Origin: a virus
Taxonomy: Duplodnaviria > Heunggongvirae > Uroviricota > Caudoviricetes
IMG/VR virus record: IMGVR_UViG_2579778899_000010
Location: 1 to 10,866 of that record
Reading direction: 5' to 3' (one strand)
DNA: 10,866 bases
Positions 1,136-9,818 of the stretch are shown here, one piece after another. The notes under the pieces are model-generated. The model ran no database searches, was not told the origin of the DNA, and was given only the letters and a program-made list of their open reading frames with translations. The position numbers and the translations under genes are program-made. The stretch's first letter is position 1; each line of letters begins with the position of its first letter.

Positions 1136-1381
1136 ATGTTCAGGAAACCGTCGAAGCCAGAATTAAGGTATTCGGGGGTAAGAAATGAATATGTTATCTG
1201 GTGTCCAACTTGTGGTTACAGGACACGACCAGATAGTAATAAGCAGTCTGTAATTGCCGATTGGTATTTATCAAATCAGCCAGGTAATAAGCATATAGAA
1301 AATCTTTGGATTAAGCGTTACTTGGAAATCAGAGAGGGTGCGACCGTGGTCGCACAAGAAAATGAAAATAACGCCATTTAA
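1136..1381 (+). CDS. Small Cys-containing protein, putative zinc ribbon; start uncertain (1061 or 1136)
   Basis: The ORF contains WCPTCGY, and upstream FCLC if started at 1061. There is no clear SD. Its C-terminal codons (GATVVAQ) read straight through palindrome copy 1. Confidence 0.4.
   Translation: MFRKPSKPELRYSGVRNEYVIWCPTCGYRTRPDSNKQSVIADWYLSNQPGNKHIENLWIKRYLEIREGATVVAQENENNAI
1338..1355. repeat. Palindrome copy 1: GTGCGACC-GT-GGTCGCAC
   Basis: Read directly; 8-bp inverted arms around a central GT. Lies at the 1136/1362 gene junction, 6 nt before ATG 1362. Confidence 0.9.
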
Positions 1382-4744: not shown

Positions 4745-4987
4745 ATGGATAAAAAGGCATTGCTTTTTGAAATGATACGAAAACGGAGCGAAAAGAGCTT
4801 TTCTGATGGTGGTGATGGTTTTGTTTTCGCTTCGATGCTTTCTTTTGATGTTGGGTTAAATAGCAGAATTGTTAAAAGGATGCTTGATTCTGCTGTCCGT
4901 ACTGGACTTCTTGAGAAAGTTGATCGTGGCATAGGGAGAGAGCATAAGTATCGGGTCACACAGCAGTTTACGCAGTTAATTCATTGA
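4745..4987 (+). CDS. Hypothetical small protein, possible winged helix (80 aa)
   Basis: SD GGAGGG before ATG 4745. Last gene of the rightward early operon before the AT-rich SOS promoter region. Confidence 0.6.
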   Translation: MDKKALLFEMIRKRSEKSFSDGGDGFVFASMLSFDVGLNSRIVKRMLDSAVRTGLLEKVDRGIGREHKYRVTQQFTQLIH

Positions 4988-5008
4988 AAATTGACCGTAA
5001 AGTTTGAG

Positions 5009-5036
5009 TTTTACCCTGTAATTTTATACAGTATAA
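5009..5036 (+). promoter_or_regulatory. SOS-type promoter: -35 TTTACC (5009-5014), LexA box CTGTAATTTTATACAG (5015-5030), -10 TATAAA (5031-5036)
   Basis: CTGT-N8-ACAG with an AT-rich spacer is the E. coli LexA operator pattern. It exactly fills the 16-bp spacer between the -35-like and -10-like hexamers, 40 bp upstream of ATG 5070. Confidence 0.6.
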
Positions 5037-5069
5037 ATAACCTTTTTTAGTTAAATGGTATGAGATTTA

Positions 5070-5273
5070 ATGTCTGAAGCAGCCGTATCAACTCTTGAAC
5101 AACTCGATTCAAATTTAAGAGATATTGACGCCGTTCTGGATCTGGTTAGCGTCACCCTGGCTTCTCCAGAAGCCAGCCTACATATTGGTGAGGTTTCACG
5201 ACTCATCAACATGTCGCGAGAGATTGCCCAGCATTGTCAGCAAACTATCGCTGTTGAGCGTTCACATCATTGA
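5070..5273 (+). CDS. Small protein (67 aa) under putative LexA control; candidate SOS-induced antirepressor or induction factor
   Basis: ATG at 5070 downstream of the LexA-box promoter gives MSEAAVSTLEQLDSNLRDIDAVLDLVSVTLASPEASLHIGEVSRLINMSREIAQHCQQTIAVERSHH. SD is weak. Function is inferred from context only. Confidence 0.55.
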   Translation: MSEAAVSTLEQLDSNLRDIDAVLDLVSVTLASPEASLHIGEVSRLINMSREIAQHCQQTIAVERSHH

Positions 5274-5315
5274 TGCACACCCCGCCCTTCTGGACGGGGT
5301 AGTAAAAGAGTCTAA

Positions 5316-5603
5316 TTAATAAACAGCGCGAATATCGATGGTTGCGCCGCAGGCATGAGCATATTTAGCCAAAGTTTTCATACTTGCCCCTAAAGGATTG
5401 CTTTCCAGGCGGCTGATGGCTGACGGTCGCAACCCCATTCGTTCAGCCAGAGCTGATTTCGTTAAACCTGCTCTTTCCCTCATTTCGTATAACATTTCGA
5501 CCATCTCCAGCTCTTTGTCGGCCTCTTCATATCCTTTGACGGCTTCTGGAGTGTTGAGGAGTTTTTCTTTTACTTCGTTAAACGGGATGCCTTTCGCTTT
5601 CAT
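5316..5603 (-). CDS. HTH (XRE-family) antitoxin of a HigA-like type II TA pair (95 aa)
   Basis: Minus-strand ATG at 5603-5601 with SD AAGGAGA 7 nt upstream, overlapping the toxin stop by 1 nt. HTH segment LTKSALAERMGLRPSAISRLESN. Confidence 0.8.
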   Translation of the reverse strand: MKAKGIPFNEVKEKLLNTPEAVKGYEEADKELEMVEMLYEMRERAGLTKSALAERMGLRPSAISRLESNPLGASMKTLAKYAHACGATIDIRAVY

Positions 5604-5914
5604 CAGTTCATCTCCTTCAGGCGAGTTCTGGCGATTTCGATAGCCTTCACCGGTGTTTTCTGTGTCTTTTTTACAAATGCATGCAATAGATAAATTTCGT
5701 TACCAGTCGCGTAGGCGTACAGCGTTCTTGCGATGTTTTTATCCCCTACTCGTAGTTCAAAAAGCCCTCCACCTATTACACGGCTATGGGGCATCTTCAG
5801 TTTGTTGCCTTCCTTCTCCAGTCGCTCAATTAATCTGGTCATGCGACCTCGCAAATCATCTGGTAGTTCAAGCAGTTCATCCAGTGCTGCAGGGTGGGTT
5901 ATCACGTTAAACAT
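5603..5914 (-). CDS. RelE/ParE-superfamily toxin, HigB/Gp49-like (103 aa)
   Basis: Minus-strand ATG at 5914-5912 with GGAGG 7 nt upstream. Product MFNVITHPAALDELLELPDDLRGRMTRLIERL...GGLFELRVGDKNIARTLYAYATGNEIYLLHAFVKKTQKTP matches the RelE-fold Gp49/HigB pattern. Toxin-first order with a coupled HTH antitoxin. Confidence 0.8.
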   Translation of the reverse strand: MFNVITHPAALDELLELPDDLRGRMTRLIERLEKEGNKLKMPHSRVIGGGLFELRVGDKNIARTLYAYATGNEIYLLHAFVKKTQKTPVKAIEIARTRLKEMN

Positions 5915-6079
5915 ATTATAGCCTCCATAGCCATAAAATACACCAAAACAAGAAAAAAGCGCAAATTAAAAATTTCACTAAAAAGTTAAAAATAACACTG
6001 GATGTGTTCGTTTGGCAGAGTTACAGTTCGTGTCATTGAGGGGCAATAACCCACTAACTATATGAATTTGGAGGATATT

Positions 6080-6547: not shown

Positions 6548-6565
6548 GTGCGACCACGGTCGCAC
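6548..6565. repeat. Palindrome copy 2: GTGCGACC-AC-GGTCGCAC (central dinucleotide inverted relative to the other three; flanking T/A extend it to 20 bp, 6547-6566)
   Basis: Read directly. Immediately after the stop of the 6315..6542 gene and about 85 bp upstream of the intrinsic terminator. Confidence 0.9.
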
Positions 6566-6650
6566 AGCACAAAAACGAAAAAGCTTGGCAAAATTACGGT
6601 TTTTAGTTATTGTTTTGTTAAGTTGGGTTTTTTGTACCCAACATCCAACA

Positions 6651-6676
6651 AGCCGCCTTTATGGCGGTTTTTTTGT
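6651..6676 (+). terminator. Rho-independent terminator (hairpin AGCCGCC / GGCGGTT with 5-nt loop, then a T7 run)
   Basis: Sequence AGCCGCCTTTATGGCGGTTTTTTTGT: GC-rich stem plus a run of seven T, located between the small-gene pair and the methyltransferase. Confidence 0.6.
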
Positions 6677-9580: not shown

Positions 9581-9598
9581 GTGCGACCGTGGTCGCAC
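9581..9598. repeat. Palindrome copy 3: GTGCGACC-GT-GGTCGCAC
   Basis: Read directly. 19 nt after the stop of the 9250..9561 gene, preceded by the boxA-like string TCTCTTTG (9564-9571). Confidence 0.9.
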
Positions 9599-9800: not shown

Positions 9801-9818
9801 GTGCGACCGTGGTCGCAC
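9801..9818. repeat. Palindrome copy 4: GTGCGACC-GT-GGTCGCAC
   Basis: Read directly. Exactly 220 bp from copy 3 (start to start), 23 nt upstream of ATG 9842. Confidence 0.9.

Follow-up and report, generated by a model that had tools for sequence, protein, structure and literature searches.

A conserved stem-loop lacking A- and T-runs between a putative LexA-controlled antirepressor gene and a convergent toxin-antitoxin operon in N15-like phage-plasmids of Escherichia

In the passages of PMC3121763 and PMC4488713 that deal with phage N15, induction of the prophage is described as depending on AntC, an antirepressor under direct control of LexA, the gene of which lies outside the immunity regions; the primary source cited there is Mardanov and Ravin (2007, J Bacteriol 189:6333). 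Tum of coliphage 186 and GfoA/GftA of Gifsy are comparable systems, in which a LexA box is likewise found on a small antirepressor gene outside the immunity region (PMC3121763). N15 carries in addition the gene pair gp49/gp48, to which a role in plasmid stabilisation has been ascribed (Dziewit 2007, as cited in PMC5906591). Two kinds of transcript 3′ end are relevant where such units converge. In bidirectional intrinsic terminators, one stem-loop is common to two convergent 3′ ends and is defined as a class by its A-tract and U-tract; intrinsic termination in E. coli normally needs a U-tract (PMC6061677). Rho-dependent transcripts of E. coli, as mapped by Term-seq, end just past stable stem-loops that show no uridine tail and no upstream A-tract but an enrichment of C over G downstream, and these stem-loops act as a protective barrier to 3′ exonucleases (Dar and Sorek 2018, PMC6061677).

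The locus described here lies in a stretch of 10,866 nucleotides (IMG/VR record IMGVR_UViG_2579778899_000010, hereafter the window), which is part of an N15-like linear telomere phage-plasmid (Ravinvirus) of Escherichia. Positions 4900–6000 are 99.3–99.5% identical to the Escherichia phages YDC107_1 and PhiR46_1 (genus Ravinvirus) and 72% identical to positions 39550–40576 of phage N15. E. coli, E. albertii, E. fergusonii, and Shigella harbour identical or near-identical copies, which are located on non-mobilizable “plasmids” of ∼46 kb and never on a chromosome. The genes of the window are arranged in the order cro, Q, early genes, gp46, gp47, the junction under study, gp50, gp51, a late promoter/terminator, a methylase gene, and the lysis genes. 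At the junction, a plus-strand open reading frame (ORF) of 67 amino acids (5070–5273) is convergent with two minus-strand ORFs of 95 (5316–5603) and 103 amino acids (5603–5914). A scan of the window against Rfam matched no family.

Upstream of the plus-strand gene, we read from the sequence a predicted promoter at 5004–5032, composed of a –35 hexamer TTGAGT (5004–5009), a 17-nt spacer, and a –10 hexamer TACAGT (5027–5032). Its score in our consensus scan is 8/12, which is under the threshold of 9/12. The predicted –10 hexamer is overlapped by a LexA (SOS) box, CTGTAATTTTATACAG, on the plus strand at 5016–5031, the sole occurrence of CTGT-N8-ACAG in the window, where 0.14 would be expected by chance. 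N15 contains three such sites: one inside the tape-measure gene, one before the umuD-like gene 26, and one at 39564 (CTGTGTTTATATACAG). Of the three, the site at 39564 alone is followed by a small ORF with no other assignment (39619–39831), which is without annotation in both AF064539 and NC_001901. The product of this ORF and the 67-amino-acid protein of the window share 56% identity (E 5e-25), the promoter geometry is the same (TTGCGG-17-TACAGT in N15, matching TTGnnn-17-TACAGT), and both genes occupy the same slot between gp47 and the gp48/gp49 module.

Profile searches of the 67-amino-acid protein gave matches to phrog_6301 (E 1.8e-35) and to phrog_10889, an “anti-repressor” family (E 6.9e-8). 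No Pfam or NCBIfam family was matched, and a large protein search for source names returned “hypothetical protein” only. We assume that antC of N15 is located between genes 47 and 48, and based on this position, the LexA-box argument, and the PHROG “anti-repressor” match we take ORF 39619–39831 to be antC. Judged by homology, LexA box, and PHROG matches, the gene at 5070–5273 is an SOS-box gene and a homologue of this presumed N15 antC, encoding a putative LexA-controlled antirepressor, and we refer to it as antC in the following. The window protein differs from its N15 counterpart in being 3 amino acids shorter and in having a different C-terminus, and its repressor specificity probably differs from that of N15 AntC. 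Unlike the N15 protein, Tum and GfoA/GftA have no detectable sequence similarity to the window protein. Because the LexA box covers the –10 hexamer of its promoter, DNA damage would be expected to derepress antC, and AntC would then, by analogy with N15, inactivate the CB prophage repressor.

The two minus-strand genes are orthologous to N15 gp49/gp48, a Tad-Ata-like type II pair of the Gp49/HigB type. The toxin (5603–5914), a Gp49/HigB-type member of the RelE/ParE superfamily (PF05973, E 2.5e-29), shares 92% of its amino acids with N15 gp49 and matches the HigB toxin of PDB entry 6af3 (E 5.5e-5). The antitoxin (5316–5603) is an Xre/HTH_3 protein (E 2.8e-12) with 85% amino acid identity to gp48. 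As in N15, the toxin gene comes first and is followed on the same strand by the Xre-HTH antitoxin gene with a 1-nt overlap, the toxin stop overlapping the antitoxin start at ATGA. A putative promoter/operator of this toxin-antitoxin (TA) operon was assigned to 5915–6060 on the minus strand, where direct repeats are located at 5963–5979 and 5983–5999. In contrast to the directly SOS-regulated TA loci tisB, symE, and yafNO, this region (5915–6060) contains no CTGT-N8-ACAG. In a PADLOC scan, the TA proteins gave weak domain-level matches and no complete defence system. We regard the TA module as cargo inserted in inverted orientation on the minus strand, which would be expressed in the lysogen and act as a plasmid addiction system.

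A first-pass annotation of this DNA had described the junction as an SOS-driven gene facing a TA operon across a GC hairpin, with no strong terminator in between. This description is borne out: the gene at 5070–5273 carries the sole LexA box of the window and is homologous to the presumed N15 antC, the opposite strand encodes Gp49 and HTH_3 domain proteins orthologous to N15 gp49/gp48, and the hairpin, CCCCGCCCTTCTGGACGGGG, is located exactly at 5280–5299. The distance of 43 bp given between the two stops is correct as a difference of stop-codon coordinates, whereas the gap itself (5274–5315) measures 42 nt. On the plus strand, the hairpin RNA folds with –14.6 kcal/mol (z –2.3) and its stem is broken by a C·A mismatch. 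The minus-strand RNA reaches –19.2 kcal/mol (z –3.9) with nine contiguous pairs including a G·U pair, a value not attained by any of 200 shuffled sequences. No T-run is present in the tails behind the stem, which read TAGTAAAAGAG on the plus and TGTGCATCAATG on the minus strand. The T-tail scores, calculated with a recurrence after d'Aubenton-Carafa 1990, are 1.20 (plus) and 1.50 (minus), while the late terminator of the window itself, at 6650–6670, reaches 3.52. The consensus scan detected no terminator between 5273 and 5316. The junction resembles a bidirectional intrinsic terminator in that a single GC-rich stem-loop is shared by two convergent 3′ ends, but it lacks the class-defining A-tract and the U-tract on each strand.

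We compared the junction with 63 related loci from public phage and plasmid records, 2 GTDB genomes, and 51 IMG/VR contigs, a redundant sample in which N15 is present three times. The layout gp46-gp47-antC on the plus strand, cargo on the minus strand, and gp50-gp51 on the plus strand is found in all 63. The cargo is usually gp49/gp48; loci of the Citrobacter type carry an unrelated HicA/HicB-like pair instead, and a TnpB gene is inserted in two cases. The LexA box upstream of the antC homologue is kept in all loci except those of phiKO2, where the box has one mismatch, and L062, which was not parsed by our script. A canonical bidirectional terminator consisting of A-run, stem, and T-run separates antC from the cargo in 37 of the 63 loci, namely those of the N15, Enterobacter, Klebsiella, and Citrobacter types; examples are AAAAAAGGGAAAGGCGAG-ATAC-CTCGCCTTTCCCTTGTTACTT and AAAAAGGTGAGG-TCTC-CCTCACCTTTTT. 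At these homologous sites, T-tail scores range from 2.8 to 5.1 on both strands. The family norm is therefore an antC gene insulated from the cargo and not coupled to it. The T-less hairpin occurs in 20 loci, all of the Escherichia lineage and falling into two sub-groups that are ∼85% identical to each other, while the remaining six loci show an intermediate or rearranged spacer between antC and cargo. Judged from this distribution, the missing T-run is a derived, lineage-specific state: in the Escherichia lineage, a conserved GC stem-loop devoid of A- and T-runs would have taken the place of the bidirectional terminator of the relatives. The difference is evident in the 3′ flank of the TA genes, which in N15 consists of a 14-bp stem followed by UUUUUUAUU and in the window of a 9-bp GC stem followed by GUGUGCAU.

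Among nine distinct haplotypes of the Escherichia lineage, none of the 20 hairpin positions is variable, compared to 8 of 22 flanking intergenic positions (Fisher p = 0.004) and 45 of 204 positions in antC. Since the hairpin is invariant while its flanks vary, it is under constraint. A degenerate copy of the hairpin, CCCCGTCCAGTAGGGCGGCG, is located on the IncK2/Z plasmid pEA26_3 just past the antitoxin stop of a related TA cassette that is not accompanied by antC. Homology to the window extends there as far as the hairpin's distal edge, beyond which a canonical terminator is found. This plasmid is the only one among about 115 plasmids with this TA family in which the hairpin accompanies the cassette outside N15-like elements; the others show homology only from the antitoxin stop inward. 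We considered whether the hairpin is part of a mobile TA cassette; pEA26_3, as a single case, provides only moderate evidence for such an association of hairpin and cassette. A scan of IMG/VR for the pattern CCCCGYCCNNNNGGRCGGGG matched at least 119 unrelated contigs; this pattern is a generic GC palindrome and the scan therefore uninformative with respect to hairpin mobility. Based on its stability on the minus strand and the pEA26_3 copy, the hairpin looks like a 3′ stem-loop of the TA mRNA, likely with a protective role for this transcript and for the antC mRNA as well. Its origin may be sought in the ancestral terminator: in the phiKO2 terminator, right arm and T-tract (CCCCGCCTTTCTGG) align in register with the sequence that forms left arm and loop in the window hairpin (CCCCGCCCTTCTGG). 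This short match suggests that the hairpin is a remodelled remnant of the terminator, from which the left arm and the A-run were lost.

With no intrinsic terminator at the junction, RNA polymerase that has transcribed antC very probably continues into the antitoxin gene in antisense orientation. On the plus strand, the C/G ratio rises from about 1 behind the hairpin to 2.0–3.25 (78-nt windows) in a C-rich, G-poor tract at 5419–5560, antisense to the antitoxin gene. This rut-like tract is a candidate Rho loading region. Its peak window (5457–5534; 33% C, 10% G, C/G 3.25) lies at the 99.7th percentile when every window of the 10.9-kb sequence is counted on both strands, and is the most C-rich and G-poor stretch, but it is also a by-product of the purine-rich coding sequence of the antitoxin. 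Like the Rho-dependent 3′ ends of E. coli (PMC6061677), the antC strand shows a stable stem-loop with neither a uridine tail nor an upstream A-tract and an excess of C over G downstream. Unlike these, the C-rich tract begins about 120 nt past the hairpin and not immediately, and the TA strand is G-rich behind the hairpin (C/G 0.7–0.9, antisense to antC), so that C does not exceed G there. A weak terminator-like site on the plus strand at 5443–5456 (5-bp stem with three GC pairs) was rejected, since it falls within the coding sequence of the antitoxin and is no better than chance, with one such site found compared to 1.7 expected.

Taking these features together, we propose that the stem-loop would not act as an intrinsic terminator for antC. 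Polymerase would transcribe 150–300 nt or more of the antitoxin gene in antisense and be released by Rho at the C-rich tract, about 150–280 nt further on, and the antC RNA would be trimmed back to the stem-loop at about 5299. The same stem-loop would also cap the TA mRNA. A certain amount of convergent transcription across the antitoxin gene would be expected in the SOS response and during lytic growth, and nothing indicates that selection has favoured it as a means of regulating the toxin. We hold this explanation as a whole with moderate confidence. It agrees in part with the first-pass annotation, which had transcription from the LexA-controlled promoter running antisense through both TA genes. 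Entry into the antitoxin gene is likely; because the rut-like tract stands in the path of read-through, transcription would stop within or just past the antitoxin gene, and passage across both genes is correspondingly weakened. The LexA-controlled promoter is a plausible source of such transcripts but not the sole one: no strong plus-strand terminator was found between the start of the window (cro/Q region) and 6650, and early lytic cro/Q transcription would therefore also converge on the TA module. Literature searches returned no transcriptome of N15-like elements and no SOS-driven antisense control of type II TA loci.

The first-pass annotation had further suggested that SOS-driven read-through from antC would tie TA expression, and with it growth arrest or abortive infection, to DNA damage. 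In such a model, polymerase collision or RNA duplex formation would lower the antitoxin relative to the toxin, and damage would trigger toxin-mediated arrest. The arrangement of the genes would suit such coupling, since the antitoxin gene is promoter-distal, nearest to antC, and met first by polymerases that encounter no intrinsic plus-strand terminator between 5273 and 6650. However, the transcript that would have to traverse the operon is an untranslated antisense RNA, the classical substrate of Rho, and its path leads over the strongest rut-like tract of the window. The preservation of the T-less hairpin throughout one lineage and the presence of a convergent TA module in this slot even in loci with another TA family (HicAB, Citrobacter type) would speak for the model, but the strong bidirectional terminators that insulate the two units in 37 of 63 relatives, including N15, contradict SOS-toxin coupling as a family-wide design, and activation of the toxin during induction would reduce phage yield. 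We regard this model as quite unlikely, and effects on toxin and antitoxin levels, growth arrest, or abortive infection are purely conjectural.

Interference could also act in the opposite direction, if weak constitutive transcription of the TA operon passed the T-poor hairpin and continued antisense over antC and its promoter, damping leaky antC expression and stabilising lysogeny. The G-rich sequence behind the hairpin on the minus strand makes read-through across the 204-nt antC gene conceivable, as its RNA would be a poor Rho substrate and the tail scores only 1.50. This is set against a strong minus-strand hairpin (–19.2 kcal/mol) with three U residues among the first eight tail positions, for which partial intrinsic termination is plausible, and a perfect U-tract on the TA strand of N15. 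In addition, promoters of type II TA systems are autorepressed and weak. Of the readings considered, we give this one the least credence and deem it very unlikely. The hairpin might, on the other hand, suffice as a terminator in both directions in vivo, perhaps with the help of NusA/NusG or of head-on polymerases, in which case the two units would be insulated as in N15. A stable, GC-rich, and strictly conserved stem-loop exactly at the position of the relatives' terminator speaks for this, but the U-tract normally required in E. coli is missing, the plus-strand stem carries the C·A mismatch, and with T-tail scores of 1.2 and 1.5 the hairpin falls far short of all relatives and also short of the phage's own late terminator. 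Sufficiency of the hairpin is therefore unlikely in our view. Read-through ended by Rho and trimming to the stem-loop remains the explanation we prefer.

The components of the locus are all of known kinds, namely N15 antC, the N15 gp49/gp48 TA pair, and a Rho-type 3′ stem-loop; what is new is solely that one lineage has replaced the bidirectional terminator, which is a modest variant. It is quite improbable that this replacement in the Escherichia lineage has truly tied the addiction module to the SOS antirepressor, be it by transcription antisense to the antitoxin or by a TA brake on antC. If it did, antisense transcription in the SOS response or early lytic growth would shift the toxin:antitoxin balance, or TA read-through would set the threshold for antC induction. 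If there is no effect on cross-talk, the locus would be nothing more than two convergent units of an ordinary kind that share a Rho-type 3′ end. The family offers a natural experiment in this respect, as the main difference among close relatives is the element between the SOS gene and the TA operon, either a canonical bidirectional terminator or a T-less stem-loop. Phage-plasmids of the N15 type are frequent in Escherichia, Klebsiella, and Enterobacter, and all records examined either leave antC without annotation or carry it under a wrong label (“putative gp47”, “hypothetical protein”); settling its identity would improve their annotation.

None of the sources among the public records examined gives the antirepressor name to the gene at 5070-5273 of the window, here called antC, or to its homologues. 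In both N15 records, the homologous gene is left without annotation, and elsewhere it is labeled “putative gp47”, “Gp47” or “hypothetical protein”. N15 (L068) also carries a second good LexA box, CTGTATAAAAAAACAG, at 21660-21675, with the umuD-like gene 26 (21692-22078) lying 17 nt downstream of it. Therefore, two genes of N15 are preceded by an SOS box.

Cargo genes accumulate in the slot that follows antC, a hot spot that is always filled on the opposite strand. Most elements harbor the gp49/gp48 toxin-antitoxin pair at this position, a HicA/HicB-like pair fills the slot in the Citrobacter type, and two Enterobacter-type elements show TnpB insertions, one of which has left behind a truncated remnant of the antitoxin gene. 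Cargo slots were noted in the related loci L005 (2003-3388), L008 (2116-2775), L009 (2119-2778), L045 (2796-5004) and L059-L061. In two Klebsiella-type relatives, L043 and L053, a degenerate terminator is separated from the antitoxin stop codon by an insert of 45 nt, ∼45-70 nt past the antC stop. This insert includes CCCCGTCC-TTCA-GGGCGGGG, whose stem is identical to that of the hairpin following antC in the window but has the opposite orientation and a different loop.

Upstream of the toxin gene, at 5963-5999, we identified a pair of direct repeats of 17 nt each, AAATTAAAAATTTCACT and AAGTTAAAAATAACACT, 20 nt apart, which are candidate operator sites for autoregulation of the toxin-antitoxin operon. 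Beyond this module, positions 6585-6613 resemble a late promoter (TTGGCA-17-TATTGT), and a canonical terminator, AAGCCGCC-TTTAT-GGCGGTTT plus TTTTGTG, comes after it at 6650-6670. This arrangement (6585-6670) is syntenic with the annotated late promoter and terminator of N15 (41162-41250), presumably the target of the antiterminator Q.

An 18-bp near-palindrome, GTGCGACC(GT/AC)GGTCGCAC, occurs four times in the window (1338-1355, 6548-6565, 9581-9598 and 9801-9818), against a chance expectation of 0.01. One of these copies, at 6548, is situated between gp51, a gene downstream of the toxin-antitoxin module, and the late-promoter-like site. In phiKO2, a related phage, the syntenic feature is annotated as a “putative plasmid partitioning site”. 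The four near-palindromes are probably dispersed centromere sites of the sopC/parS type, as known from N15.
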